In this document: in pieces, positions 11,010 through 55,214 of the stretch
How the letters are laid out: each line of letters begins with the position of its first letter
How positions within the stretch are numbered: position 1 is the first letter of the stretch
Assembly (NCBI RefSeq): GCF_964194025.1
Contig: NC_134469.1
Coordinates: 52,886,001-52,950,000, forward strand
Length of the DNA: 64,000 bases
From: Convolutriloba macropyga
Lineage: Eukaryota
Direction: 5' to 3'
Translations under genes and position numbers: made by a program
The notes under the pieces: model-generated
Database searches by the model: none
Told to the model about the DNA's origin: nothing
What the model saw: only the letters and a program-made list of their open reading frames with translations

Positions 11010-11168
11010 CTGATTTCTTCCGTTTGTGCCCCCAGTACGTTATGATCCCCAGTTACACAGCACGTGTCATTACATGTTAAACCACCCTGTAAAAGTATGA
11101 CATGTGCCTCTTGGGGGGCGCAAATAATATGCAACCACTAAGCTGGGGGCACAAACGGAAAAGATCCC
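11010..11168. mobile_element. MITE (~160 bp)
   Basis: 24-bp TIR GAT(T/C)T(C/T)TTCCGTTTGTGCCCCCAG at 11012-11035 and 11143-11166 (22/24). Shares internal ACCACTAAGCT with the MITE at 27735. Confidence 0.8.
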
Positions 11169-16255: not shown

Positions 16256-17818
16256 TTATTGATATGCACTCTGGGAATAGAGTTTGAGAACTCGGGTCGT
16301 CTCGTTCAATTCAGGGAGCCCCAATTTCTCTAAAACATCTAAGACCTTGTAGAGAAACGCAAAAGCTTCAAAAGTTTCTTTCAAACCGCCAACCCTCCGG
16401 GTGTTTGATTCTGAATTGCTTTCTATCAACTCCTCAAGGCGTCTCAGTTGCATCTCATGTTGCTGCTCAAAATTCAAATCGCTGTCGCTTCTAACCACAT
16501 CCACGGCGCTTGAACAAAGAATGCGCACTAAGTGAGTGCACATATCCTGAAACTGAGTTTTCACTGATTGATTATTCGAGATAAATTTCAAATTGATTCC
16601 CGGTATTTGCGCAATGAACGACACAACAGCCTCAGAAGATATCTCAAGAGTTTCCCGCGGACTTGATTCGGGATCCCTGATAATGTCAAGGACGGATCTT
16701 AGAGCAGTCTTGTAAAGGTTACTAATATACAGCTTGAACACGTCTAAAATTGCCCTATCTTTAGTGTCGATTTGTGAAGATGCTTCCTCATGTTTCGGTA
16801 ACTGTGGAGTTGGGCTTCTTGATCGGTCCGCGTGGTAGTGAGCAGAGGGAGAGTTATATCTTGGGTTTGAGAAGCCATCTAGGGATGGTGATGTTGATTT
16901 GGAAGAATGGAAAGAAACGTCAAGACTATTTGAGGGTGAGCAATGTCCCGAAAAATCACAACCAGAGTCGTCACTAGAGTTAATAGTTGAGCCTGAATCC
17001 TTGGACTGAGGTTCTGAAGCTGGCGTCTCATTCAAGGTAGGGTTGTTCCAGCTTAACTTTGTGACCAATGATGCCAGGTTCTCGTCTGGATTGGGTTGGG
17101 GGTGTGCCCTGGCTTGCTTCCTCGCATCTCGTCCAAGCTTAATCATACTAGAAGACATGCCCATTTGTACGCATCGATTGAAGCGACAGAACTTACATTT
17201 AGTTCTGTTGGCACCTGACACGTCACAATTGTTGCCTCCAGTTTTACAGAAGAGCTTTTTGATACCACCAACAATGGCCCTTTGAAAAAAGCGCTTGCAT
17301 CCTTCGCAGCAAAAAATTCCGAAATGGACCCCCGATGCAACGTCTTCACAAATTCGGCAAAACTCTCCGGGAAGAGTCTTGGAATACTTTTTCTTCAAAG
17401 GCATCGTCCCCTCTTCGTCACAATTATCGTTCCCAATTGGTTTCCTCTTCTTCTCACATTCAACTACATCTACATAATCGACTGATCTGCTTGAGTCCAA
17501 CTCTCCGTTCACTGATTCCCCACTAATAGGTAGCAAATGATCCGATAATTCACTCGATACCGAAGACTCGCCCATTGACGAGAAATTGCTCTGCGAATGC
17601 CGTCCGCTGAGGTCTTCGCGATAGTTTGGAAGACTGGAAATAGAGTTGGCATAGTCCAAAATGCTATCAGTAACTGTTCCAGGCTCGGTTTCAATACCCT
17701 CATAATCCGCAGGTTTATAAAGCGAGGGTAACTGGGGATAACTGAGGGGAGGGATGGCAGGGTTTTGAGGTGAAGAAAGCATGGCGAGGTAAAAATTATA
17801 CAAATCAAACGACGACAT
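16256..17818 (-). CDS. Nuclear hormone receptor (C4 zinc-finger DBD, divergent LBD), NR1-like, single coding exon, ~520 aa
   Basis: Uninterrupted ORF with first ATG at 17818. DBD CRICEDVASGVHFGIFCCEGCKRFFQR...CKTGGNNC...RTKCKFCRFNRCVQMGM, then a GRIP-box-like KLGR. LBD H3-H4-like VSFIAQIPG...NQ. Confidence 0.92.
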   Translation of the reverse strand: MSSFDLYNFYLAMLSSPQNPAIPPLSYPQLPSLYKPADYEGIETEPGTVTDSILDYANSISSLPNYREDLSGRHSQSNFSSMGESSVSSELSDHLLPISGESVNGELDSSRSVDYVDVVECEKKRKPIGNDNCDEEGTMPLKKKYSKTLPGEFCRICEDVASGVHFGIFCCEGCKRFFQRAIVGGIKKLFCKTGGNNCDVSGANRTKCKFCRFNRCVQMGMSSSMIKLGRDARKQARAHPQPNPDENLASLVTKLSWNNPTLNETPASEPQSKDSGSTINSSDDSGCDFSGHCSPSNSLDVSFHSSKSTSPSLDGFSNPRYNSPSAHYHADRSRSPTPQLPKHEEASSQIDTKDRAILDVFKLYISNLYKTALRSVLDIIRDPESSPRETLEISSEAVVSFIAQIPGINLKFISNNQSVKTQFQDMCTHLVRILCSSAVDVVRSDSDLNFEQQHEMQLRRLEELIESNSESNTRRVGGLKETFEAFAFLYKVLDVLEKLGLPELNETTRVLKLYSQSAYQ

Positions 17819-20800
17819 CCTATTCCTCGTAGGCAGTATCGGCCAATTTGTAGCCAGAAAATTTATTAAGTTCAACAAAGTGTAACTCGTCGATCAATGT
17901 ATAAGATACGTAAATCAAGAAAACTGGCACAGAGCTGATTTTTAGCAGCGCAAAATAAGAGAATGAACCGAATGAACCAAATAATTAGCTGTTGATTCAA
18001 ACATTCAATTAAGTTTAAAATTTAACCACTACAACGTAGAAACTCAACTTGGCTTTAATAAAAAACAGAACCAAGTAAAAAGAATGAGTTTTCAAGACAA
18101 CAAATAATGAGGCTTTTTGCGAAAGCAGGTCAACTCAACAAATTCAGTTTGCTGCTTACCGTATTGCTCAAACTAGTTCGAATGATTTTTTCATCGGAAA
18201 GAAATTTAGCGGGTAACTGAAATGATGTTTATCCAGTTCACTTGCTTGCATAGAAAATCAGGAAATTTCCCGCTTTAAACTTCATTTATTGACTTCTATG
18301 ACTGCTCTATTTTAACCGATCAGGATAATGAACTGTCCTGACCTTTCACTTATTTCAACTCAAAATTTAAAGTGCTCACGAAAAACGTGACTTCTCATCG
18401 AAAGCGATGCATGTAACACTAGAGTAAGTTTTTGACTTTAATACGAAAAGACGGCAGCATTCGCTTTCAAGATTTATGTTTGATATTTATAAAAAATATA
18501 TCTAAAAATTGAGGAATATCAGAACCAAAACGTACGCAGGATAATGGGGTCAAGAATAGAAGAATGGCATTTGAATTCGTTAAAATTATTTCCGCACGGA
18601 TCCGCTCCAAGGCTTTGTTTAAAAGGACATTTGATTGTCGGCCGCCTCTTTGATATTGCAATAAGTTGCTCTTCCCGAACTGCAACATATTGACATGCGG
18701 AGTGTTCGCTTTCAGGATGAGTGCAAGTAAGTCTGTGAATGAACTCATGAGTAGACATCATTGTAGCGAGAACACTTTGATAGCCTCTAAACTGATCTCA
18801 AGAGTCTTTTGAAAGTGTAAATCATCACAGGACGATCTAGTAGTCTGTTCGAGACATAGTGTCGTCAACGTCGTTTCTTTTCTTCCAAAAAAATTACGCA
18901 ATACGGCGCATTAAAAACAATGAACTCAATGAAAAAAATTATTTACTTATCTTGTTATAAAAGCACAAAAACTCATTCCCGAGCCCGAGAAACTTTTCCT
19001 TTTGACAGCAAAGAAAACGAGGAAAAATAAAATTCTCACAAAAAAGGAAACTTTTCTTGGCATATTTTAACATGCGCTATCTTTTTGCCAGGACAGCTTG
19101 AGCCTGAGAATTTGCTGTGCCAGTTCCACAGTAGCATGTTCCCGATTTTTCTAACACCGGAAACCAAATAATAGGAGAGCCAAGTTCCTAAGTTAAAGCT
19201 AAAGGTATACAATCAAATTAATTAGCAAGCACCATTGAAATCCACCCAGCTGTTTAAACGTAAGCTTATCAACAAAATTCGATTAAATTCTTTCAAAATA
19301 TGTCTTTAAATGGTACCAAAAACTTAAATTCCTCGATGCGAGTTAATTTAAAGAAACCGAATGCACAAATCCCTAAAATTTAAAAACGAAGAGATCCTAA
19401 AATTCAAAGATATTTATGAAAAGATTGTTCTAGAGTAAAGAAAAAGCGGTCATCATGAGGTTAACATTTGGTGTTTGATAGAATACATTTATAATTGGTA
19501 AAAAAAACAGTGCTAATAAAGATTTGTAGGTCTTGATAATTCTATTAAAAATACTTTTAAGAATTATTAAATAATTTAAAAAATACACAAAAATTGGCAT
19601 AAAATTAACTGAAAACAAGTCAATTTAAAAGAAATTGAACTAATCTTTCGCAGTGAGGAAATAAAAAGAGTCAGTCATTCGCACTCTCGAATTGAAAATG
19701 AGCTCAGTAATGACTTCGGCTGAATGTTGGACCCCAAATAAATTATTTTCATTGTCCAGTGTTAGTGGGTCCAATCAGGCTCAACGTACTGAATTCCATC
19801 CCGCAATCTCACTTGCCAGCCTATTGCTCTAACCATCACTCGACTTAAGCTCTCAAACTTTGGCATATTTTAACAAAGCCGGCAGACTGCCAGAATAGCT
19901 GCGAAATAGACTTGCGTGTCGTATAAAACAGATACAGATATATAAGTTGAAAAAGCTATCGACGCCGCTCAAAAAAACTATTTAAAATTCAGCGATAAAT
20001 TAATCAGACTTCACTCTAAAGAAGCTTTTTTAATAGGTACCTTGATTACACAAAAACTTATGTTTTAGTGTAAAAATCATTTTATTGAGTGAGTAAGTCA
20101 CGTATGATCAAAATCTAATCACACGAATGGCCTGAAAGCTTTTGCTAGAGTGAGTGAGAAATGACCTCACGCGCGCAAATGCAGTTAGTGAGAGCAAAAG
20201 TCATTGACTTTTCCAGCTTTGCGGTGTGAATAAAACGAAAAAAGAGCATCAGACGACGAAACAAAAAACATAGCAGGAAAGTCCTGAATTACAATTCAAC
20301 GAATTGAACAAACAGAAGACAATACTATCAACCTCCGTCCAAGAGCAGCCTCCGATAAGGAATTAGTTATAAACCGAGCCATCCTGGAAAGTAAACAGAA
20401 CATTACAAATATCTCAAAACAAAATTATTTCATTTCACTTTTAGAAAAATGGGGTTATCGAAGTTATTATGTCCAACAAAGTCAACTTCCAAAAACTTTA
20501 ACTTAATGAGATTTTAGAAAGCAAACAATAATGTTGCAGAAAACCACTAAGAGGCGAAGTAAAAGGACAACAAACGTTTGGAAAAAACCGGTTTTAACAA
20601 CTTCATTGAAAAAAGGTGGCCTCAGAGTAATTGAAACATGCAGAAAACATGAATTTTTTCCCAATTATTTAAAAATAGAAAACATAAATCAACTTCAATT
20701 AAAAGAATCAAAAATTTTTGGTCAATGTAACAATTACAATAGTGGGTGGAAACAAATAAAGACCAATCAAAAGTTCAAAATTTTTAATATGTTGCCAAAG

Positions 20801-32977: not shown

Positions 32978-33248
32978 TCAAGGAGCTATTCTGTAAATGA
33001 TCCATCCGTCAGAGCCTTTATGCATAACTTTTTCATCACAGTCCGCATGCTGAATTCTTCTGTCAAAAACGTATCTGTCGTGTAGCCTGTCTGTGTTGCC
33101 AGCCCAAAACTCAAAGTAGTCAGGCACTACTCGGAATCCACTCCAGTCATCAGGAAGAGGTAGTGAGTCTTTCTCAGAGTACTCTGACTCCAACTTTGCG
33201 TACGCATCTTCTAGAAATTTCCGATCGAGAATTGGGTCACTTTGAGGA
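32978..33248 (-). CDS. PNPO: Pyridoxamine/pyridoxine 5'-phosphate oxidase, exon 2
   Basis: Encodes (S)PQSDPILDRKFLEDAYAKLESEY...PDDWSGFRVVPDYFEFWAGNTDRLHDR...WIIYRIAP*, matching the PNPO motifs QS, EFWxGxxxRLHDR and RLAP. Confidence 0.93.
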
Positions 33249-33716
33249 CTGTTAGCAAAACGGTTTTCAGTTCTCCATGTAGATCCGAACCATAATTAAC
33301 CCTATATTTAGCACATTGAAATACTTCCTAGTTTTGAAGACCAATAATTCAATTGTTCCAACCCGCTAGGATCATTACGCTAGTTCGACCTTGTTCAACC
33401 AATTCTTTGTTAAGCCAATGTTGACCGACCAACAATTTTTGCGGAAAGATACAACAGTGGTATCATTAAAAAAATCTTGAAAAACAATCGACTTCGAAAA
33501 ATTTATTTTCGTTAAATAGTGCCGGTATTGCTTAAATGAGCATAGATATCAACAAACGTGAGGTGCAATAATCATATAGCGTTAAAATTAACCCCTGGAT
33601 ACTGATAATTACATTTTAAGATCTTATTAGGTTATACGGGCTTGCCGATGTAGTTTTCAATAGGCTATTTATACAATCCCATGAAAAACGTTCTACTTGG
33701 GGAAGAGAAAACATCC
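33249..33716 (-). other. PNPO intron, 468 nt, non-canonical GG-AG (equivalently AG-AC, 33251..33718)
   Basis: This junction (ATC AG|GGATGT...GCTAACAG|T CCT CAA AGT) gives SQISAAISPQS, colinear with conserved SQIGAxxSxQS. CAG is repeated at both ends, so the register is ambiguous. Confidence 0.75.
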
Positions 33717-34204
33717 CTGATTGCCGCACTGATCTGACTACCCTTTGGTCTGGAAACAAAATACGTGTTTGTCTGCTCGCGGGTTACTTCTACGGCTTTG
33801 CCTTCGATTCGAACTTGTCTATGAAAAAATTCCCAGTAAAAGTTGAGGGCTACAAATGGATTAGACTGTATTTCTTTGGATTTCTTGCTGTTTAGACAAG
33901 AGTAGAAAACGTATCCTTCTTGATCATACTCCTTAAGAAGTACATAACGGCTGGAGGGTCGGCCCAATGAACTGCACGTGGCAAGTACCATCTTGTTGGG
34001 CTGTTTAATCGACTTCTCAGCTACGGCCTCTTTCATCCATTGCTTGAAGAGACTGAAGGGATTGAGCGTCTTCACATTTTGATCATTCAGAGCTGCGTTG
34101 CCTTCGTAGTCGTAGGGGACTCGAATGTCTTTGAGAGAGCTCATGCTCCGTGTGAGGATATAACTTTTCGGCAGAGGAAATATTGACGCTCTTATAAAGA
34201 ACAT
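33717..34204 (-). CDS. PNPO: Pyridoxamine/pyridoxine 5'-phosphate oxidase, exon 1
   Basis: NPFSLFKQW, PNKMVLAT, GRPSSRYVLLK, NPFVALNFYW, RQVRIEG and YFVSRPKGSQI motifs. Spliced CDS is 759 nt (252 aa). A second in-frame ATG lies at 34144. Confidence 0.95.
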
Positions 34205-34377
34205 TCACATAAAACAATCTAAAATATCTAAAATAGAAAGAACTTGGTTAAGTATCAATGACTGTCCATTAGATCCTAGACTACAGTAACTGTTGAAATT
34301 TTACAACAATGAGCCGAACAGCACAAGTTAAGACAGATCTAAATGACTATTTTGCTTATCTTTAATAGCCGATCAAA

Positions 34378-37251
34378 AACACGGATGCTCGCTTATGTGC
34401 GATGGCAAATAATGTTCCGAACCCACTGATAAAAATATTTTCTCAATTGCCTAACAATTGTCAGCGATAGAATGATTTTAATGTGGTATTTAATGTTTTG
34501 TTCTTAAACTTTGATATATTCTTAAGAAAGGTCCGACGTCTATACAATAAAGATTTCATACCAGTGAGATCAAATATCTTTAATTCATTGAATGAGCACT
34601 CAAACAAACGAAACGAACGACATGAAATCGAATTTAATGCAATTGCTCAAGAAGAGAAAAAATAACTTCATCAAGTGAACACCTAATGTTATCCAAAAAG
34701 AAACGAAAATAGCGACCCAAAACTCAAGATCTAGGCCGTTTTGAATTTAAATCTAAAACTTTATTTGTTTTTATAAAAGTTACAGGTGGTCTCTATTTAT
34801 TTTCGAATATATAATATATTCTCAATTTAGACTTAAATGAGGGTTCACAAAAAATCTAAAGTGAAAACAAAAATATGTTCAAATGCAAATAGAGGTAACT
34901 CAAGCTAATCATGAGGTGAGTCACGATTCGAAATTGTCTATGAAAAAAAACCAGTGCAAATTGAGGGCTACAAATAGATTAGAAAAGTAGAGAAGCATAT
35001 CTGAAAACAAAATACAACCACGTATAACCCAAAATTTGAAACAACTAATCAAAAGCAGAGGCGTTTGAGTATGCAGTACTTTTGACAACTGGCTTCTGAG
35101 ATTTTACAAAACATTTTTGAACGGCATCATATCAAAATATGTTAACTTTGAAACAAAACTTTAAAACTAAACAATGTCAAAAGGACACATTCAGAAGTTT
35201 CAGTTCTGCCTCCTAAGAAAAACAACTGGACTTGTCAGCAATAAAAATAACTGATGAGTTCAAAACTAACCAAGAAACTAAATGAGTGAAAAATCAATAC
35301 AAAAGACCCAAAATATCTACAAATTTATAAGTAAATAAAGAGTCTCAAACATAAATCTATGACTAAATATCAAAATGTCGACTCAAACATGCCTCATTAT
35401 TGACTTGTAACTACATAATTGAAAGATTGAAGTGCAACAAAACAAGAAATTAACAAAAGCCGTTAGAACACAAATTTCAATTAAACTTTTTTGGAAACAT
35501 TTAGCGTCCAAACATAAATTTTTGCTGTAAACTGAAGCCATTCCTATATGTAATCTCGGCCACTGCCGTTAAGGAGGAGGTACTGACAGAATATACATTA
35601 CTCGGACTGTAACAAGTCAACAGAAAAAAAACCATCTAAAGTCAGAATTCAGAAATTAAAAAAAATTACCAGAACAAACTATTTCCAAGTGATCAATACC
35701 AAAGACTATATCAAAGAAACCTTATGAAGGTTAACTATACCTCACTGGAACTTCAACGAGAACTCAAAAGTATTGGGATTTATCAACATTACAATATCAG
35801 ATAAAAAAAGACAAAAAGACAAAACTAAGAAAATATTAAGTAAAACACGTAGTGTTAACGTGAAGAAAATAATCAATTATCAACAGACAAATTGAGACAA
35901 AAACAACTATACAAGAGTGAGACAAACATCGCACCTGCTAGATTCCCTAGTTCATATTTTCTAATACTTAACTTTGATAGACTCGTCAAGACGTGTTTAA
36001 AAGTGGTACTACTAGTGAAATCAATTTCCCTTATTTGACGCAAAAAAACAGACAGAAATGAGACGAGAGACATGAGATTTCAACCAATGCAGTTTTACAA
36101 TTTAAAAAAGAACAACTTTCTCGAACAACTGATTTTTATCAAACAACAAAAAATAAAATCCAGAAATCAATATCTATCCCTTTTCAAGACAAATTTCAAA
36201 CCGTAAATTCTCAAGTAATAGCAACCTTTTCAATGAGCTTGCTTCTAACCAGTTTTGATTAGAATCAAAAAGTTCAACTTAAATTTTTTAGTTAGTGCAG
36301 AAGTAAAAATGACCTGTGCATTCAACAATGCAAATTGAGAATGCAAATTCAAAGCTAGATAATCACAAGTTGTCATGAGTGAGGTATGTCAAGATTTAAA
36401 ATAAAACTAACCAAACGCTTGTTGCAACAAACTAGTTAACAAATCATGTAAACACGTAAATGAGAACAGCAGAAAAATCCTCAGCAAAGTTTGTTCAAAA
36501 CTTTCCTAAAAACAAGCACATAGTTTTGAGTATTAAGCAGCTAGAACCCCTTAATAAAAAAATTAATTTACAAGCCGAAAAACCAATATTGAGGGGCAAA
36601 TTTTTATCCTGTAGTCTTGTTATTTCAAAAACAAAGTTTAGAACAATTTATTAACACTGGACATAATCAGAAGCTTCAGTTATAATTCTTTATAACGCGA
36701 TTTGATCTTGAAAGCAGTCAGAATAAACAACAAGTCCTATTGTAAATAAGTAACTTTCACCAGAAAACCAAATGAGTTGAGAACCAAAAAGTCAAACTCA
36801 AAAATTCCGCCAATTTTTACGAAGTTGAATGGCGACAATTTAATATCTACGATAAGTTATCAATTAAGAAAAAAAAACTTAGATTTAAAAATGCCGCATC
36901 AATGACCTGTGGAGACTTTCATAAATAAGATTCAAGGGCAAAACAACACAAAATGCTCACAAGTTCAAATTCTTTGCATCTTTTAAAACCGTTTAGTGTC
37001 CAGTCATAAAACCCTTAGCTACAATATCATGCCATTAATGATCTTCGTTTACTGCTGAAATTGAAATATTCACACAAAAATTTAAGGATTCGAAAAAGAA
37101 ATTTTGGAAAAAAAACTTAATTTCACACTTCACTTGATCGGCTTTTTAGTGATACCACTCAAATCTCGACAATATATCGATCGGCCAAAATTGACTAAAC
37201 AAAAAAACAGTTGAGAATATAGTTCCTCCCCCACAACTGGGCTTGGAACAA
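34378..37251 (-). mobile_element. HINE/DINE-1-like element, copy B
   Basis: 3' end AACACGGATGCTC...ATGTGCGATGGCAAATAATGTTCCGAACCC at 34378-34425; 5' head GAGAATATAGTTCCTCCCCCAC...TTGGAACAA at 37213-37251. Confidence 0.65.
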
Positions 37252-42624: not shown

Positions 42625-43169
42625 GTACAACCACACATTTTATCAACACTAAATATACTTCGCGAAAAAAAACTCAAACGTGTCAAATGGAATTCAATGT
42701 GATGTTGCCATTTTGTAAACTTTTAAAACACTGTTAAATTTTTTCTGGGCTGAGTTTTATCTTTGCAAGTATATTCAGCCATACGGCTATAATATTAAAT
42801 TACTTGTTTCAAAAGAAATCCGAAATTTTTGCTCTCAACAGATGCAATTGTAGATGCTCGTGGGTTGCGAGAGAACAACCTAATGTAAATTGTGCATAAG
42901 ATAAGCTTGACAAGAAGCTCTACTTGTTCAATGTATACTTCGCTAGAGAAAAGAAGCTTTGAGGAGCAAGAAAGAACATGAGAACGGGTTATAAGAGATG
43001 ACCCAAATCCAGAGCTTAAGACCAGATGGTTAGCACACTATGCTTGCAAGTAGATGCTAGTTCACATCCAGTAATGGTCCATTTTCACAGTAGTTGCACC
43101 TGCTTAGACGCCTAACAGTAGACAAAAGCGAACACACTGCTTCCAGTGAAACAAAAATTTTCATTGGGT

Positions 43170-46100
43170 GTAGTAGTAGTAGTAGTAGTAGTAGTAGTTC
43201 AGGCTTAAGGGTCTTCCCAGGGGTGCTCCAAGGCACCCTTGTTTTCGTGTCCTATTTCTAATCGATTTTCGATCGTGGGTTGCACTTCCCACATTTACAT
43301 AAGATTCTCCACGTACATTTGTTGTTAAAGTCGTAATTTGTTTTAAAGAAATTCCAGTAGATGTCACTCAGTTTTTTGCTCGATAGTTGCGTTGAATCAG
43401 AAAGAACTTTGGAAAAGATGTTGTAAAGTAGTTTGGCTTTTTGAAGGAAGTTTTCATCAGTCTTCCTTAGACAATTTTTTGCCATTTTTAATTCCCCTCT
43501 TGCGCTTTGTTTAGGGGAATTAAAGTCTTCATATTCGAAGTTTACTTTGATGTCGAATTTATTGTCAAGTAACGATAGTAAAAGTAGTAAATCGTGCAAT
43601 TCGACATACATGCTTAGGGGCAACAGTTTAAGCGCTATTAGCGTTTCTTTGTAGGTGCAGTTCCTTCTACTTAGTATCCATGAAGTGGCTCTTTTTTGTA
43701 GCTTTTCAATTTTCTTCATCTGCTGTCTGTTTGGGAGCCAAGCTTGAGAACAGTATGATAGTATTGGCACGACATAGCCAGTGTAGGCATTCAATTTATT
43801 TTTTAATGAGGCGATGTCGGTCATGTTTTATTTGGTAGAATGCTTTTGTTGCTTTCGAAAGCCAGTGATTACAGTTGCTATTCCAATTAAGATTTTTAGA
43901 GACAATAAAGCAAAGGTCCCGTTGACTATCAACCTCTCCTAGCGCCTGTTTTTTAGTGACGCTGTTGGTCGCTTTTAAGAGAGAGAAGTTTACATTTTGA
44001 TGCAATTAAGTCATGTGATTTCGATCGCACCAGTTTTCGATTCCTTCCACGCTCTTTTTTTAATTATTCCTGATTTACGCTAATCAGTTTGAAGTCTGCG
44101 AAACCGAAATTTTCAGTGAGAGGAGTTTCTGATGGAAGGTCATTTATGAAGATGAGGAAGAGCAGAGGACCTAAGATTGACCCTTGTGGAACACCGCTAG
44201 TGATTTCTAATTTTTCGGAAAAAGAATTATTAATCTTTACGTATTGTTACCTTCTATTAAGGTAGCTTTCCATCAGCTTTAAAAGATTTCCTCCAATTTC
44301 GAATAAAAGCAGTTTTTCAATTAGCTTGTTGTGGGAGACTTTGTCGAAGGCATTTGCAAAGTCTAAGTAGAGGACTGACAACTCTTTCGTTTTCACATCG
44401 TTAAATTTGGCGTACAAAGAGTTTAGAAAAAGTAGTAGTTGAGTTGTAGCAGACCTCCTCTGTCTAAATCCAAATTGGTTTTCAAAGAGATTGTCTTTGC
44501 AATGTGAGTATATTCGGTTGCAAATTATTCTGTCCAACAGCTTTGAGACGCAGCATAAAAGACTTATGGGCCTATAGCAGTTGACATTGGCTTCACTTCC
44601 CTCTTTATATACTGGCGTGATTTGACTTAGTTTCCAGAGTTCCGGGAAAATTCCTTTATTCAGGATTGTTTGGAGCAGTAATAGGAGAGATTTACTCAGA
44701 GTCTTAGCGCAATTTCTGAGGATAATATTTCCTAGGTTATCGGGGCCTGCTGATTTGTTCAGATCTAAATTTTGTGAGAGCTCTTCAATTTCCAGGCGCA
44801 AAATTTTTATAAAGAAAAGTTTGCTTTTTGTGTAACTCAGTAGACGAGGTTCTTTACTTTTATATACATTTTTGAACAAATTGAAAAGGGTGGCTTTTTC
44901 GCTGTCGCTACTGGCTTTTTCATTACCGAATTTGATTGTTGCTGGCAAAACTGAGGGATTTCGGATACATTTCAGGTAATTTTGTATACTGCTAAAACGC
45001 CTGCTTGTGAAAATTTTGTCTTCGAATATGTTTATATCGATGTCCAGTTGTTTCAAAATCTGCTTCTCCAGCTTCTTTAGTTTGAGGAGTCTACTGAGAT
45101 TCAAATTCAAAGATTTTTTTGGTGTTCAACTGCTTCATCATGTGAGAAGTTTCTTTACTGGCCCAAGGAGGCAATGCTGCTCGATATTTCGTTACTTTAG
45201 GAATGTGATTGTTGATATGGTGTCTAATTCATGTGTACCATTGGTTTAATAATGAGTCAACATTACTAAAACAGAAGAGTTTGAAGGCGTTTTCCTCAAT
45301 GGCTTGATTCAGTTTTTCCAGTCTGCTTTTTTGAAAGCAAATTTACGGCACGTGTTTGGAGTTTTTGACAACTGTGCCGAGAAACACAAAAGTCAGAATT
45401 GGTAGGTGATCTGAACACTGCTTCTTGTTCACCTCCTGTGAGGGTTTTGGTGTTGATAGCATTCTATCACTGGATGTGGATTATTTGTGAGGACACCATC
45501 TAGCGTTTGATTTGATATGTTCGAGAAGTTTGATTCTATCAGTTTATCCAGGACCTCTGATTCATAGTTATCATTAGAGTCCATTGCTTCCCAATTTTTC
45601 CCTGAGAGGTTTATTTCGCCTACAATCAGAGTGCATTGAATCATTTCCTGACTTGTTAAGTTGCATAATTCAGTCAGTAGCTTTAAAGTTTTCAGTAGTC
45701 CATTGATAGCGACTTCCGTGCGGGGGATCATACATGCAGGCCAATAGAATTGAGGTTTCGCTGATTGTTATTTTTAGTGCTAAAGTCATGAGTTAGTTTT
45801 AGGTTAACTGTTTCAAACGGAATGCCTTTTTGAGAGCTACTAAAACACTGCCATGGTTTGATTTGCGTTCAGTTGACTCTCTGTCCTTTCTGTTGATTAC
45901 ATAGTTCGGTATAAAAGCGCACTATTTGAAGTTTCAGCCGCCAGCCAGGTTTCCGTGAGACAGATGATATCAAAGTCAAAAGTTGTCAGGCAGTTCGTTA
46001 ATTTCATTCGACGCTCGGGTTTCAGAATACTACGGACGTTTTAAGATAAGATTGTTATTTTTCGTAGTCAGCTTTCGTCGGCTGACGATGCGCCAGCAAA

Positions 46101-47244
46101 ATCGTTTTCAATCAGATTGTCTTTATATTCTACCCATCTGTCACCTGGTTTGGTCTCAACGATCAAGTTTCGGACTGTAGCATCTGTGTTTGAGAACATG
46201 TGGTTGGCAATATACAGTAGTCTTTTTCTCAGACACTCATTTTCAATTTTTAATTGCTCTGGGGTAAGCTCAGGGCTTATGAAGACTCGCCGACTGAAGT
46301 TTTTAAGCCTGAAGGCTGATTTCAGCACTAGCTCTTTGCTAATAGGGCTTTCTAGATTTATGAGGATGGTTCTCGGACCATTTTCTGGGTTATATTTTCC
46401 TATACGCGTGACCTTACAGAGTCGCTTGTCTTCTACTTTCTTTAGGTAACACAAGATCTCTTCAATAGCATTCATATATTCATATCGGCATGAAGTCTTT
46501 CGTCTAGTGACTTTGATTCATTTTCTGGGATTCCTCTTACTCGAATACCCATTCCATTGTCGTTTGCGCTTGGGAGCAGAAGCGCTCGTTCGCGCGTAGA
46601 ACACTTTTCCCTTCGCAATTGTCCCCAAAGAAGCGGCATAAGATTGCGGCCTTATTTTTAACTGTGATAGTTCTGCTTTGATTGAGTTAATGAATTCGTT
46701 TGATTTTTCGATTTGCTTATTCAGTGATTCCACTTTCAAATTGAGATCATCTAGTTTTCCATCCATTTTTGTTGAGAGAGCCTGACTTTGGTCTCCTGAC
46801 CCCTTTTTTCTGTACAACTGTTGCAGACGTGAAGTATATTTGCATTAAATTTGATCAAGACTTTAATTTCTTCTACTGTAAAGCCTGTTTGAGTAATTCT
46901 CAAAAGATGCGCTTCCATGTAAAAAGGAATCCATAAACAGAGGCTGAACAAACAGGGCAACGCAAAAACTCGCATGATTCCGTGCGTGCAACAGATTGTT
47001 ACCACATTTAAAAAGAAACAAAAACAAAATAGGGGGTGCTAGTTGTTCAACCTGCCCTGCATACAGTGCAGCACCGTTGCTATAGCCACAATTCTTTTTT
47101 GCGGAGACAGTTATACTGCACGTTGAAAATGCAGCTTAGACCACCTCACTCCACTCCACACATCGCACACACTCCGTGCACCCCAAGCCCCACACGCTTG
47201 ACACTCACCCCGCTGCAAACCCAACCTCTAAACCACCCCTGAAC
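43170..47244 (-). mobile_element. Near full-length, frameshifted CR1/L2-clade LINE (ORF1 + EN/RT ORF2), within calcineurin B intron 1
   Basis: 3' (TAC)n tail at 43170-43198 preceded by the hairpin GGGTGC-CTTGGA-GCACCC. RT motifs YRPISLL, QFGFRQRRS, LYLDFANAFDKVSH and [22 protein letters not shown]; endonuclease DIICLTETWL (~45945-45975). ORF1 has PHD-like and coiled-coil parts and RIGK...GPR...FISPELT. Several frameshifts. Confidence 0.93.
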
Positions 47245-47423
47245 TTTACCTTTTAAGGTAGTCTCTAAGCCCCAGCATGATATTGACTTAAACCAACTGC
47301 TCACCAGTCGCTTCTAACATTTCTGGAAACTATTGGCATAACAACAGTTATCACAAATACGTACTGAAAGGGTTCAACAGACCACGGGGAAATCATAAGA
47401 AATCATTCATGGTGTTAAAATTG

Positions 47424-50000
47424 GACAAGAGGCGCGGTATAAGGTTCCGATCGCACATAATGTTCCGATCCCGCTCATCTAAATTTTTGTTCATTGTCCA
47501 ACAAATGAAGAGATTAGAGATATAAATAGATGTTAGTGTAAAAAAATTACAACCCAAACTACTAAATGAATTATGAATTATATAATGTCATACTGCATTC
47601 GAGAACTCATGCGAAAATAAAAATGCAAGAACTCAAACATTATAAACTCTAACTACTAAATGATTTATATAATGCCATACAACACATTGAGCTCTCATGA
47701 TACCTGTCATTATTAAAACTATGAGACAATGCAAACACAAAACAAACAAAAACCAACAAATACGGCAAAAACACAAAATCTATTTTTAAAAGCACTAACA
47801 AGACTCCTGTTCATAAAGGTACTAGATAGCCAGTCGACAAAAAGAAAAAAATAGGCAAAGTTCAAAGTACATCGAAATTTTTTAACCCAAATAATTTCAG
47901 AAGTCATAAAAACCGTTAGCTTTTAACTTAAATTTTCCATATCGACTTACTTATAGAACCTCGAGGGATCTGTCTTGGGTGAGACTAAGGCCGAGGACAG
48001 GAATACATAATAGCTGCAGATTCCGAATACCACAAAATTTACAAACAATTTACAAAAATACAATTGAAGCCATTAACGTCATATATCTTAAAAGTATATA
48101 ATATTCTTCAATTTCTACTATTTCAGTTAATATATAAACAGAAAATTGTATATGTTCACTCGAATCTCATTTGAAAATCAATGGGACTTGTTAACACGAA
48201 CATTTTAAAGGAAAACTAAAAACCTTACCAATCACAAAAATTTTAAGACAAAGCATAGTGTCCAAGATGAAACTAAAGGTTTAAGTTTAAATCACAAGAC
48301 AATGTACGGGACCTCTCATTGATAAGAATACGTTTCAATAGACAAAAAGAGGAACAAATCAGGAAATAAGGAAAAAATTCTGAAAACTTTAGAAACAAAC
48401 ACGATCAAAATCATCAAAACCATTAGCTGTCGACTGACCGATAGATTAGGTTCCTAATCCCCTTCCACTAAAAGGTAGCTATTGAGAACTGTAAAAAATA
48501 AGAAAAACCCTGCGACAAAACAAAAAAGCTTAAGACTACGAAAACAACAATTACAAACCTTAAGACTACAAAAACAACAATTACAGGCAAAAAACCAGAT
48601 ATCAAAAATGCGAGAAGTGTCGGAAGCAAAAAATAAAGGATTCCGTAAAAAAAAATTCATTTTCCTATCAACACCAATGGGATCTCTCGGCATTCTGAAA
48701 AGATGACTTCAAAAACAACGGCAATTATGACATGATATCAAAAAATCTCTTAAATTTTGGATATAGGTCGTAGTATCAGAGCCATTAAAAATAAGTATGA
48801 ACGCAAAACATCTAACAAGTTAATTCACACCTAAATTGGGACCCAGTGAGACCCTTTATTCATAACAACAAGTCTTCTGATTACAAAATACAACAAATAC
48901 AGGCAAAAACCAAAAATGCAATAGAAAAAAAAGCCAGAAAAAGTTGAAGCCATTAAAACATGAGTCGTTTGCTGCTAACTTTCTATGTGTTCATTAAAGA
49001 CTATGCTGAACGCCAATGGGAATGTTCAATATTGTTGTGATAAGACTTCTAATTAAAAACACAATTATACACAGAAATCCAAAAATCTTTATAAAAACAT
49101 AGCATCAAAGTCATAAAACAAAAATTTAAAAGACAAAACAACTAACCAAATAAATTTTTATTCAATATTAAACCTAGTGGACCTATAAATTTTGGGAAAG
49201 ACCTACAGGTTCACAGAAATGTCTTTAAGAACATTACGTGTTCAATTTTTGCTTCAAAAAATTATTTCAAAGTCTCAACAACCATTAGGTATACATGGAA
49301 AGCATTAGGTAGGTTAACTTGACCTTAGTTAGGAATCCAATTGCGATTTATGTTTATTGAATTTTTCCTGTAGACATTTAACAAGAAAAATGCAACAAAC
49401 GGTGGGAAAACACAAAAATTCACTAAAAATTACGAAAAAATTGTCGAAGCCATAAAAACCCATTAGCGATGGTTCCATGAAAAGAAAATAAATGTTCTTT
49501 AGGGACCAGTTGCTCGTAAATGAGATTTTTCATCACTGAAACTTCAATTTGAAAACGTACTTGCCTATAATGACATCAGAAAAATAAAAACTCGAAAGAA
49601 ATTCAAAAAAGGCACTCTCCGATATGAAATTAACAAAAAGTTTGTAAACTTCCCGGTGAGACCAAAACTAGTCTTTTTATTACTGCTCGTCTTCTGGAAC
49701 ACAAAATTGTTTCTTATTTTACTGTAAAAAACAATTTTTTACTAAAATTTTGATACAAAAAACTTAGATTTATCAAAAATGAGGTTACATGTGAACAGAA
49801 TCACACCCAAACATCAAATGTTCACAATTTTAAACCTCGATAACACCTCGAAAAAAAAATTCAAAACTTTTTAATTCAAACCGACGTTGGAGGAGCTTTC
49901 TAACGATACCACTCATGATTAATTACGATGAATATATCGATCGCCCAAAATTGGCTGAACAAAAAAAAACCTAACCTGTTAGAGAATATAGTTCCTCCCA
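47424..50000 (-). mobile_element. HINE/DINE-1-like element, copy D
   Basis: ACAAGAGGCGCG...GCACATAATGTTCCGATCCCGC end at 47425-47474; shared head GATACCACTCA...GAGAATATAGTTCCTCCC at 49905-49999, with the extreme 5' end lost. Confidence 0.65.
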
Positions 50001-51719
50001 ATAGTACATAGTGACTAATAGTACAAGAATTGAGAGCAAAACAGAACAAATCCTTAAAACCTTCAGATTATTAGTTACATATAAAAACACTCAATATGAA
50101 ATTACTCTTTGAGTATTTAAATAAGATATATCAAAAACAAAGAAAAATCTTCCATGGTGTTTTTTAAAATTTTCTTTTTAAAATTTTCATTAAAAACATT
50201 GGTGTCAAAATGACCAAATATCCTAGACTGATGCTCAGCAAAATTAAAGACTTTTCAACATTGTTGTTAGGATTCCTTTTTATTTTAAATATCAATGTTA
50301 CGAAGTAAAATTAAGGACATCAGGTCAGGCAACATAGAAAAATTTTTAAACACCGTGAAGAAAAAAAAATTGCATCGAAGTAATTAATTGCATTCACTAT
50401 AGAAATGAAAGATTAAATTGTTTAAATTGAGACTGATTGCAAAACACATAAGCCCTCTTTCTGATCTCAGTCAGTCAGTGTACTTGAAAGAACTCTAAAT
50501 ATAATAACAAAATATAGGGCAAAAAATATATAGGCAAAAGTAACAAATTCAAATTTTTCCGAATCATGCGCCCCCAAAATCGTTTAACAAATTAGCTACC
50601 CCTTGAATCATTCACAAGATTACGATAAAGCATCCTTAGAAACCTTGCAATCCTTTTTGTAGAATTCGTCAGAAAATCAGATAGCAAAAAGAGAAAATTG
50701 TGAACAAATGTGACAATAAGCGCGTGAACAAAAAAAAAGAATCAGTTGCTGTCACTCAGATGAAAAATAGTTTGAGAGAATTTTAAGCAGCTCCTTTTTG
50801 TCAAGACTATCGTTTTCCGTTCACTTTTCTGCTTCAAGGAAAATAAAATCGCCCAAAATTTGCGGCCAAATTAAAGAAAAATTCTCTTTGGAAAAATTTA
50901 ATCAATTTAATCTGAACTTCTTTTAGACGGTCAAAAGGAGCACAGGAAGAACCATCTCAACAGACGAAACGGCTATTAACGACGACTAATGCTGATAGTA
51001 TTTCAAAATATAACAGTAACTTAATGATTGAAAAATTTACACAAATCAAAAACTTGATTATTTTTAATCCAAAATTTGCAAATTTTTATTCCCCAACGAA
51101 AAATCATAGAAGACAATCGCAAGGCAAAAATTGATGTTTCGACATATTCAAATTGTTATATTTAATTTTCTTATCCACTTCAAGTTCGATAATTAACCAC
51201 AAAAACCTACGACAGCGGTACGCAGGAAACCAATTACCATAAAATTGCTCCAAGATACGACCAAAAATGTAAAAATGATTCAAATTTAGCTGCCAAAGTT
51301 AAAGTGAATTCTGACACCCTTTTTGTTATTTTCATGACTGCTGCATTTTGTCTGTTTCCTCATTGATAGTGCTCTTTAAGGTGTCTGCTAGTTAGCAGGT
51401 TTGTCATTTTGGCTAGTAATTACATTTCAAGTGTTTATACATTTCAACAATATAGATATATTTGCAATTTCTAACCTTCAGATAATTTTGTTAAGCTTTA
51501 TCTTGTCCAATTTGTCTGTTTGGCTCTAGGAATTTAGATACGGTTTCTGCTATTCCATCTGCTTTACCGTACAGGAACTTCTGCTTTATATATTTTTGAT
51601 GTAATAGATGTTGGGAACCATGTTTCTTTAAGTTACATTCCTCCTGTTATCTTGTAGTAGCTTCCAAGTTTGTCCACATTTGACAAAACTTTGAAAACTT
51701 ACTAAGATTTATTGAATTT

Positions 51720-54700
51720 CTGTTTTTTCGAGGAGTTATCGAGGATTGATGTTTTGTGTGAACACGCGATATTTAGCATGATTTTGTTCACTTTTAATGT
51801 AATTTTTCTTCAAATTAAGATATTTTTTATTAAATTATTAATTCGAAATTACGTTTCACGCCATAAAATGAAACTATTTTGAGTTCCTAATACACGAAAG
51901 GCGAAAAAAAGCTAGTTCTGGTCTCATAGGGAAGTTTACTATAAAAAAAATTCGAATTCTTTTTGCGAGCTTTTTCAAAAAAAAAGTTTTCATATTTTTC
52001 TTGGGTCAACTAGAGACTAGTCTTTTTTTCATATCTGGGTTCCATTAAAAAAAACCTGATTTACAGTCAAATAAAGCCCAATGAACAAAACAAATCATTT
52101 TCAAGGAATCGCTCGTGTTTTTTGGCTTCGACTCGTAATTTTAAATGTAATTTTAATTTTATTAATGAAGTTTTACTTTTTGGAGTCCTATGACATGGTC
52201 TTGTTGACTAACAGTGCAATAGGTTTCGTAATACCCATTAAGTGATCCTATCTAGAGCGTTCAGTGGACAGCTAATGGCTATTAAAACTTTCAAAAAGAT
52301 TTTTCGAGAACTTTCGAGATCATTAACCGATAATAAACCTATTTTCGTAAATTCTAAATTGGTTTCATTAATGATAGAACCCCTATCCTACTGCAATCAA
52401 AATAATTCTGGTTAGCGCTTTCATCTTCCAAATATTTGATATATGACTTCGATGCCACACATTTTCAAAAAAAAATTGAAAATTTTTTTTGGATATATTC
52501 CTATTGGTGGTTCCTCATGAAATCTTATCACTTTATCCTGATATTGACATCTCCCATTGGCTTGGAGAAGATTTTCAGAGGATCATGGATAAGGTTTTCA
52601 AGGACATGGTTTAAACTTATGGTTTAAATGGCTTCGACACTTTCCTCTCTCACATTTACTGATTTTTGGTTTTCGCCTGTATTTGTTGTTTTTTCTATAG
52701 TCAAAAGACTTATTGTGATGTCTTATTTATAACCTATAAATGTCAAATATCCTTGTCCTATAATTGAGGCATACTCTCCAATTGAAAGTATTCAATGACA
52801 TCCGTTGAAAGCTATTGAAATTAATGGCTGTTAAGACTTAAAAAACAATTTTTTGATTTTTTTTTAAATTAATCAATCTTAAACTTATTTTTGTGACCTG
52901 TTAGTCAGTCTCAGTATTGATCGGACCCCCTTCTTTTCTATTTCAACCAAATTAATTTGGTTAGCGGTTTTATCTGCTAAATATTGGTGTTATAACTTCG
53001 ATGAACGAGTTTTCATAATTTTTTTTAATTTGTGGATATCGTTTTCGTAATTTTTTTGGTTCCTTTTGGATTTTTAACACATTATTCTTTCATTGGTAGT
53101 CGCATTGGCTTGAGTTGACGTACAATAGATCACACATAAGTTTTCAAAAAAACTTATGGTTTAAATGGCTTCGACACTTTCTCGCACTTTTCTACTTAAT
53201 TTTTGGATTTTGCCTGTATTTATTGTTATTTTCATGGTCAAGGACCTTTTTTCATGGTCAAGGACCTTCGACACTTTCTCGCACTTTTCTACTTAATTTT
53301 TGGATTTTGCCTGTATTTATTGTTATTTTCATGGTCAAGGACCTATTGTAATGTCCTATTGATGACTTATGAATGAAAAACATCCTTGTTGTCTCATCGA
53401 GGCGTGATTTTGCTTATTCATTAGCTTCCGTTGAAAGCTATTGAACTAAAAGGCGTTGATGCTACGTGTTTTCTCAAAAATTTCGTGGTTTTAATGTATT
53501 TGTTCATGTTTGTGGATTATTGGAGTCAAATTGTTATAAAGAAAAATCTCATTTCTGTTAAAAAATTAATTGGAATTAGAAAAGCCGCAAAAGGTAGCCG
53601 TAAAATGTTGACCGGCCCACAAGCCTGTAATTGAGGATTGAATGAATGATGTAATCCGAAGCAGTCAGTTTATTGCGAATAGTCAAAGTTTACGGTATTA
53701 TACATGTACACTTTTAAAGATTTTTCAATTTTTTCAAATTTTGTTGCCCTTTTTGTCAATTTGTAACTTATTCTTATCATTGAGAGATCCCATTCAATTC
53801 CATGTATTTTAAAAATTAACATGCTTAATAATATTATGACGTAACTGATGTTTTGTTTGTCCGACAAAATGCATTTTTATAAAAAGTTAAGTGCATTTTT
53901 ATAAAAAGTTAAGTGATTGGTATATTTTTGTTTCTTTTTGTCTTCCTTTAGCACAATCTCGTAGTAAGAGATCCCAATGATTATCAAATGTTGCAATGTT
54001 GCTCAATTGAACTTATTTTTTAATTCAAGATAACTTTAACTGAAGTAGTATAAATAGAAGTTGAAATAAAAACAAAGCATTCAGATAATAGCTAATAGAT
54101 AATAATTTTAATGGCTTCACTAATTTGTGTTATCGCAATGTTTGTAATTTGTTGTTCGTATTTTTTGAGTTTTTTGCATCTTTAGTCCGTTCCTGTGGCT
54201 TAGTATAACCAGAGACAGTTCTTATTGGTTTCATGACTTTTTAGTAAACTTATCAAGAGTTATTTCGTTAGAAGCCAAGACTTTTGAAATTATGGTTTGA
54301 AAATGATGAGTGATTTTTGAATTTCGCTGATTATTTCTCTTTTTTGTCAACTTTTTACCTCGCCTCATTAAAGAAAAATCCCATCTGATGTGTAGTTAGA
54401 AAAAAGTAAATAAGTGTTGTTAGGGTTTTGTCTGATTGTAATTTGACGTTGTTACTAGGTGCTTTTAAATTAAGCTATTGAGTTTGACGTACCAAGAAAT
54501 TTTGTTTTTGCATTTTTGGTTTTGTTTTTTTCTCGTAATCTGTTCAATGGCAGATCCCGTTACAATGAGGCATGGCTTTATTTAGTTCAGTTATTATTTG
54601 GTTATGTAACGAGTTTTTTAACCTCAAACATCTATTCTTTGCAAAAATGTAAGTCAAAAGACAGATAAGTCAAAAATGTAGATGAAGGCGGGTCGGAACA

Positions 54701-54735
54701 TCATGTGCAAACGCACATTAACGAGTCTCCTTGTT
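51720..54735 (+). mobile_element. HINE/DINE-1-like element, copy E (5'-truncated, inverted relative to D)
   Basis: 3' GGGTCGGAACATCATGTGCAAACGCACATTAACGAGTCTCCTTGTT. 51722-51940 is reverse-similar to 49640-49860. Internal ~97-bp tandem duplication at 53169-53345. Confidence 0.65.
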
Positions 54736-55214
54736 GAAACTATTCTTTTACTACATTTTATCAGTGGATGAAAAAATCATAAAACCTGGTACTGGATAAA
54801 GTTTAAGTGCTATAAGGGACTTAATTCGATAGCAAACCCTCCTCGTCTGTATATGTCTGTCTCACTGCAGGGAAATCGGATGGTGATATGAGTCGATGAG
54901 GTCAGATGACGTACTTGATAAAGAGACGAGATAGTTGCAAGTCGGAAGGTCAAGTTCATCTATAGAACTCAGTTACCACTAGACCTTGTTAACATTTATG
55001 ATTTTAGATAGTTAGATTATAAGGGATTAGAAGACCGGATATCATAAGTTCACTCGGAGCAAAATCTGCCACTATGTATTTCAACTATATTTTCATCTGC
55101 ATACCGCATACACTCGTTATAAGGCATTTTTCGATGCAAAAATTTACCTTTATATAACTTTTTCCTTCAATAAACAGTTATTTTATAGATAATTTAATAA
55201 AAAGTACAACTTAT

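Follow-up and report, generated by a model that had tools for sequence, protein, structure and literature searches.

A GG-AG intron in the PNPO gene of the acoel Convolutriloba macropyga probably arose by insertion of a Merlin transposon

Introduction

How does a single-copy animal gene come to carry an intron that begins with GG and whose two ends are complementary to each other? Such an intron, 468 nt long, interrupts the pyridoxine 5'-phosphate oxidase (PNPO) gene of the acoel Convolutriloba macropyga, on the minus strand of a 64,000-nt stretch of contig NC_134469.1 (the window; all positions are counted from its first letter). A first-pass annotation of the letters had described the inverted repeat and a CAG direct repeat at the junctions, and had offered two explanations. 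Either an RNA stem brings weak splice sites together, as in euglenid nonconventional introns, or the repeats are the decayed terminal inverted repeats (TIRs) and target site duplication (TSD) of a DNA transposon that created the intron. Here we argue that the intron very probably arose by insertion of a non-autonomous Merlin element into coding sequence, with the terminal GG of the TIR becoming the donor and the CAG of the TSD becoming the acceptor.

Results

The 468-nt intron is removed exactly from PNPO mRNA

The exons at the locus encode PNPO, as identified by the Pfam domains PNPOx_N and PNP_phzG_C (Table 1). Removal of positions 33716–33249 yields a 252-residue product that is exactly the RefSeq protein P0121, and the protein cluster of the window's open reading frame includes RefSeq XP_075239909.1 of C. 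macropyga. The nearest named PNPO homolog is from the acoel Symsagittifera roscoffensis. PNPO was found to be single-copy by genome search, with no intronless second copy; a partial duplicate of ~60 nt (87%) of exon 1 (33805–33865) is located at 34924–34983 in the window, 0.7 kb upstream of the start codon.

Table 1. Features of the PNPO locus in the window.
Feature	Position	Strand	Evidence
PNPO coding exon 1	33717..34204	-	Pfam PNPOx_N
PNPO coding exon 2, including stop	32978..33248	-	Pfam PNP_phzG_C
Spliced-leader trans-splice acceptor AG	34219..34220	-	X5 contig departs from genome at 34221
GG-AG intron of 468 nt, likely Merlin relic (460 nt) plus right TSD copy	33249..33716	-	X5 joint 33248/33717; spliced translation equals P0121
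Left TIR relic, starts GGATGTTTTC, supplies GG donor; contains the 5' arm (33712–33692) of the first-pass annotation	33692..33716	-	12.1 bits, profile of 41 TIR ends
Right TIR relic, the 3' arm of the first-pass annotation	33263..33283	-	17/21 complementary to left arm
CGTTTT where the TIR tip should read ATCC; short run of pyrimidines ahead of the acceptor	33257..33262	-	
Left likely 8-bp TSD copy GCAATCAG, exonic	33717..33724	-	
Right likely TSD copy GCTAACAG, supplies CAG acceptor	33249..33256	-	6/8 to left copy
Common dispersed-repeat fragment in intron, without TIR link	33403..33508	-	8 genomic matches at 75–88%

An 874-nt contig from run X5 (depth 218) contains the exons only, skips exactly 468 nt (the joint is ambiguous by 3 nt) and starts with a spliced leader; the 19 loose nucleotides past 34221 match the S. 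roscoffensis spliced leader in the accessible text of PMC9911081. Run X5 carries the label 'DNA?'; the transcript nature of this contig is our inference, and a broken allele or an assembly error, without real non-canonical splicing, might be suspected from that label. This scarcely credible reading is largely refuted by the skipping contig itself, which is composed of exons only and carries the spliced leader. GG is also present in three other runs, no other letter being listed at the donor position in X2, X3 and X6 (X2 and X3 are possibly close to the assembly's own source), and the genome holds no second, intronless copy.

The CAG repeat lets the junction slide by 3 nt, giving four readings: CA-AA, AG-AC, GG-CA and GG-AG. 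GG-AG is the one with a YAG acceptor and canonical U1 pairing at −3 to +1, +3, +5 and +6. In its donor, CAG/GGATGT (the slash marks the splice junction), +2 is the sole departure from the canonical form, and canonical U1 fails to pair only with +2 and +4. The intron has the features of a copepod-type U2 GG-AG intron, namely an exon-end AG, A at +3 and an AG acceptor (CAG/GGATGT...AACAG/). U12-type donors have the motif RTATCCTT, with which none of the four slid readings starts, and a U12-type intron was rejected. A nested (stwintron) route to a GT donor was also rejected from the sequence, a GA donor still being needed.

U1 snRNA genes were found at 27 loci (L313–L339), 12 of which have the canonical 5' end. 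No variant with a base matching the +2 G was present in these 27 loci, in a scoring that covered 42 candidates; the mismatch is therefore likely tolerated, as proposed for Eurytemora (PMC5714493). Most of the other U1 loci keep ACCTG and differ where U1 reads donor +3 to +6. One variant is predicted to read GTTAGT, which is common among the cathepsin donors described below, and several are predicted to read GTTTT.

The left end of the intron resembles an abundant Merlin family

Merlin elements are defined by a terminal GG, TSDs of 8–9 bp and a DDE_Tnp_IS1595 domain, according to the accessible text of PMC8101967. The C. macropyga genome contains many Merlin elements (IS1595-type transposase) with the TIR GGATCTTTTC and 8-bp TSDs. 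The pattern AGGNNNGGATCTTTTCC gave 46 matches versus 4 for the control, and 34 TIR pairs with an 8-bp TSD (21 perfect, 13 with one mismatch; 141–804 bp long) were counted in 60 loci, some of which overlap or repeat. Searching for PF12762 (DDE_Tnp_IS1595) returned 19 matches, at least nine of them inside 1.16–1.31 kb elements that have paired GG-starting TIRs and matching 8-bp flanks. Autonomous partners are present, as in L204, L209, L213 and L217, which are flanked by GGATCTTTTC-type TIRs. A CAG preceding the TIR core was matched 189 times versus 46 for the control, and 23 of the 90 sites examined are intact elements. The window itself contains one end of a common Merlin MITE at 11144–11167.

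The left end of the PNPO intron closely follows this TIR. GGATGTTTTC at intron +1 agrees with the family core at nine of ten positions, and the match to the Merlin TIR extends over +1 to +14. The score of 12.1 bits against the profile of 41 Merlin TIR ends has an iid P of 1e-4 given G at +1 and is reached at 5 of 127,968 window positions; the best among 51 GT-AG introns, which must begin with GT, is −1.4. The right end, where a TIR ending in CC flush with the TSD would be expected, does not match the TIR without gaps (best score −5.9 bits), and its tip CGTTTT is read as a decayed TIR tip. At TIR position 5 both arms carry one and the same variant base, corresponding in the left arm to the donor +5 G, and they share a distal part, CCA.GTAGA, that was not seen in the fetched Merlin subfamilies.

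The inverted repeat itself is real: minus-strand 33712–33692 pairs with 33283–33263 at 17 of 21 positions, all Watson-Crick, with four mismatches and no G-U. The 5' arm thus delimited begins at intron +5 and the 3' arm stops 14 nt before the acceptor. This pairing stands as first described, except that the left arm really starts at +1. The best ungapped score between the two ends of the intron was taken as the inverted-repeat score, which is 13 for PNPO. Among 5000 dinucleotide shuffles and 5084 genomic window pairs, 13 was reached 2 and 3 times, respectively, when the first and last 40 nt were compared; the corresponding counts were 6 and 21 with 60-nt ends, and 39 and 72 with 100-nt ends. 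A shuffle test anywhere in the intron (347/500) counts palindromes twice and was set aside. None of the 51 GT-AG introns scored alike exceeds 12, a value attained by two of them, and the end-duplex energy of the PNPO intron (−19.4) ranks second of 52.

The CAG direct repeat noted earlier exists, yet its 3-bp length is better replaced by 8 bp with two mismatches (GCAATCAG / GCTAACAG). The last eight exon bases and the last eight intron bases agree at six of eight positions, above all 51 GT-AG introns (maximum 5), although by itself this agreement carries little weight (P = 0.055 when AG is fixed, 0.14 when CAG is fixed). The transposon explanation is supported by these data and can now be narrowed to the Merlin family, an 8-bp TSD and a donor made of the TIR's terminal GG.

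In the mechanism that we propose, a non-autonomous Merlin element would have inserted after an exonic CAG and duplicated an 8-bp target. The left TSD copy would then provide the CAG at the exon end, the terminal GG of the TIR the donor CAG/GGATGT, and the right TSD copy the CAG acceptor. The ordinary U2 spliceosome presumably excises the element plus one TSD copy, and removal of exactly this segment would restore the old reading frame. The inverted repeat would be the relic of the two TIRs, the left tip having been kept as the donor and the right tip having decayed into a pyrimidine run.

No sister copy of the intron was found

The first-pass annotation had raised the idea of an Introner-like element with related copies elsewhere. 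Genome search detected only a 100-nt internal repeat (eight matches) and no copy of the body or the ends, and no TIR was found around the eight genomic copies of that repeat. The intron ends showed no added depth in the X2, X3 and X5 contigs at 80% likeness, and none of the fetched element loci has internal homology to the intron. In pattern searches of the genome, the exact left TIR of the intron occurs at this locus only, and the two exact matches of a two-arm consensus are the arms themselves. Allowing one mismatch in the two-arm pattern gave 15 matches versus 5 for the control, mostly acceptor-like, and the paired GGATGTTTTC pattern identified three loci, one of which is a 170-bp family member. 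C1813 (L026/L027) was rejected as the parent; its arm-like and core matches are ~1 kb apart and in the wrong order.

Several introns alike along their length, the hallmark of introners, were not found: the three insertions share TIRs only, and the PNPO body is unique. The absence of a sister copy places the PNPO intron outside a young multi-copy introner family, and the negative result of this multi-copy comparison led us to class it as a likely single, decayed Merlin-made intron.

Other predicted Merlin-type introns and the state of PNPO in relatives

Splice junctions of cathepsin and DEG/ENaC (ASC) genes, called by HMM from the genome rather than from RNA, served as the intron background; HMM was used for ASC because protein searches gave mostly unspliced calls. 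GT-AG lies within 4 bits of the best reading at 38 of 42 cathepsin and 13 of 21 ASC junctions, and 21 of the 51 canonical introns follow an exon AG. Clear GG or GA donors are absent from the 42 cathepsin junctions, and three of the 21 ASC junctions (L040, L042 and L108) are best read as GA-AG. Two ASC junctions have no canonical candidate in range. L045, L109, L099 and the cathepsin L129 were ambiguous, L109 being GT-AG by eye. At least 98 matches to DEG/ENaC (PF00858) indicate that this family is strongly expanded genome-wide.

In the DEG/ENaC paralogs L040/L130 and L042/L131 (G000:C8), a Merlin MITE of 238 or 202 bp is located in coding sequence. In L040 and L042 the TIRs match perfectly over 11 bp and the two copies of the 8-bp TSD agree at 7/8, and their paralog L047 is empty at the site. 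The MITE is predicted to be a GA-AG intron with both splice sites from the TSD and the GA donor inside it. The site is a phase-1 Gly position, at which the paralogs L051 (GC), L053 and L098 (GT) have introns.

Three of the 90 examined sites with CAG before the TIR core restore open reading frames of at least 80 codons on both sides: PNPO, L233 and L234. The latter two are ASC paralogs with 74% protein identity, one common insertion site and both TIRs kept, and are predicted to contain GG-AG introns of PNPO-like layout. Neither their later exons, within 30 kb, nor an empty-site paralog could be found. L233/L234 and L040/L042 were partly found through the TIR pattern itself. For the 1606-nt ASC intron L108:1643–3248, GA-AG outscores the canonical reading by 6 bits; its junction repeat agrees at 6/8, and it has no clear Merlin TIR. 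To judge from the gene models, the genome likely owes at least two further introns to the Merlin route.

Two further genes of the window were noted. Intron 1 of a calcineurin B-like gene (42625–55212, minus strand) reads AT..AC in phase 0 with a U2-like donor, ATAAGT; the last residue of exon 1 corresponds to human Q55 and the first of exon 2 to R56. Reads matched to this gene were dominated by repeats and showed no splice joint. An intronless 545-codon open reading frame (16256–17893, minus strand) encodes a C4 nuclear-receptor zinc finger and has no match to a Pfam ligand-binding domain.

Relatives were consulted for the age of the PNPO intron. Three ENA proteins in the S. roscoffensis cluster (P0125–P0127) are full length on contigs of 110–290 kb, and two of them start with M where RefSeq has V, typical of prokaryotic callers. 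For C. macropyga the same ENA source yields read-through truncations (P0001 and P0122). These unspliced protein calls suggest that PNPO is intronless in S. roscoffensis. The junction peptide after splicing is as in P0002–P0004, indicating that splicing restores the pre-insertion mRNA. A metagenome scan for PNPO returned no acoel locus and one distant locus at 50%.

In a competing history, the intron has some other origin and its donor changed from GT to GG, with the TIR likeness, the junction repeat and the stem all due to chance. CAG/GGATGT is indeed one change from a strong donor, an exon-end AG is shared by the 21 canonical introns mentioned above, the parent copy was not found, and two GT-AG introns come within one point of the PNPO inverted-repeat score. 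Such a history nevertheless needs three coincidences, namely a TIR match exactly at +1 (P = 1e-4), the top inverted-repeat score and the top 8-nt repeat; it also has to contend with the apparent absence of the intron in S. roscoffensis and the same layout in L233/L234. We consider it unlikely.

The terminal stem in the RNA

Folding of the whole region is no better than that of shuffled sequences (z 0.20, 49/100), although the terminal helix itself is present in both the MFE and the centroid structures. The predicted pair probability is 0.93–0.97 for 15 of the 17 stem pairs, and 0.47 and 0.86 for the end pairs. U1, U6 and U2 normally need +5/+6 and the −15 to −35 zone.

A euglenid-like, non-spliceosomal intron set by RNA structure alone would account for the non-GT donor, the end-to-end stem and the junction repeat. 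Against it, the acceptor is a normal YAG and the donor fits canonical U1. TGT at +4 to +6 and GCT at −8 to −6 do not fit the CAG/CTG motif in the accessible text of PMC11282704, and the stem would hide donor +5/+6 and the usual branch-point zone. In addition, GT-AG is the reading at 38 of 42 cathepsin junctions, and canonical U1 is present at 12 of 27 loci. The euglenid-like reading is thus very improbable.

A transposon origin could also be combined with later selection of the TIR-derived stem as a splicing aid, by looping out 408 nt or by masking an in-arm cryptic GT at +5 and an in-arm pyrimidine-AG. The high predicted pairing would fit this, as would the end-duplex energies, which lie between −19 and −47 kcal/mol in each of the five Merlin-type introns (best of the 51 GT-AG introns, −20), and the retention of both TIRs in L233/L234 despite changes at 26 of 46 fourfold sites and interiors without BLAST match. 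Pairing is, however, already produced by TIR origin alone, L233/L234 had been picked out by the pattern of their left TIR, the stem would cover +5/+6 and −15 to −35, and the whole-region z is only 0.20. Selection on the stem is a possibility to which we give less weight, a splicing role of the stem being the less likely case.

Discussion

A Merlin insertion very probably turned into an intron in PNPO, which links the rare GG donor of a needed single-copy animal gene to a transposon that is named, abundant and accompanied by autonomous partners. Since donor and transposon occur in the same genome, both the origin of GG/GA donors and their tolerance become directly testable. The case would extend transposon-made introns to acoels. 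It also has practical consequences: a screen that recognises introners by the likeness of introns to one another will miss single, decayed gains, and gene finders limited to GT/GC will break such genes.

A broader and more speculative proposal, which we rate as doubtful at present, is that Merlin is a standing source of GG/GA-donor introns in convolutid acoels, that the spliceosome accepts them without a matching U1 and aided by a selected TIR stem, and that the same rule lies behind the exon AG of copepods. Every copy begins with GG and generates an 8-bp duplication, so that an insertion behind any exonic YAG would be a ready intron.

No report of Merlin-made introns, or of non-canonical or transposon-made introns in acoels, was found in the literature outside paywalled papers and bioRxiv supplements. 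Two introner surveys have no main-text match to 'Merlin', and a single supplement row that names it is finally classed Unknown, with a 4-bp TSD. Acoel names are absent from the 12 of 14 supplement files of PMC12130899 that the search covered. The Merlin paper PMC8101967 has no match to 'intron', and the acoel genome paper PMC6451197 states that no intron made only of transposable elements was found.

Relative to the superfamily as described in the accessible text of PMC8101967, the acoel elements share the terminal GG, the 8-bp TSD and, in autonomous partners, DDE_Tnp_IS1595; unlike them, the PNPO copy has no transposase, has lost its right tip and has no sister copy that we could find. Introners with TIR and TSD are known in the accessible parts of PMC9860276, PMC12130899 and PMC11282704 (Micromonas, Chrysochromulina and Florenciella types). 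Like these, the PNPO and L233/L234 elements would bring one splice site (5') and borrow the other (3') from the TSD, L040/L042 would co-opt both sites, and mRNA length would be unchanged in all. As far as those sources go, the acoel case differs in its GG donor and 8-bp TSD, and in that most of the Merlin family is located outside exons, an intron being a rare outcome of its insertion (3 of 90 CAG sites).

Fritillaria borealis has MITE-derived non-canonical introns, and more than 90% of its introns are non-GT/AG, mostly AG-AC or AG-AT, in the accessible text of 10.1101/2025.08.15.670264 and PMC11282704. An animal host and TIRs that form non-canonical splice sites are common to both systems, whereas most C. 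macropyga introns are canonical. Euglenid nonconventional introns, in the accessible portions of PMC11282704, PMC3935182 and PMC4770533, likewise have paired ends and junction repeats; the PNPO intron differs from them in missing the CAG/CTG motif and in having a canonical acceptor and spliceosomal signals.

The closest parallel in splice sites is the copepod Eurytemora affinis, in which GA/GG donors make up about 12% of introns and their origin is not given (PMC5714493). The acoel introns resemble these in the obligate exon-end AG, A at +3, normal acceptor, lineage-specific position and canonical U1, and differ in that GG/GA donors are rare and tied to a named transposon. By analogy, TSDs with a terminal AG might account for the obligate exon AG in the copepod.
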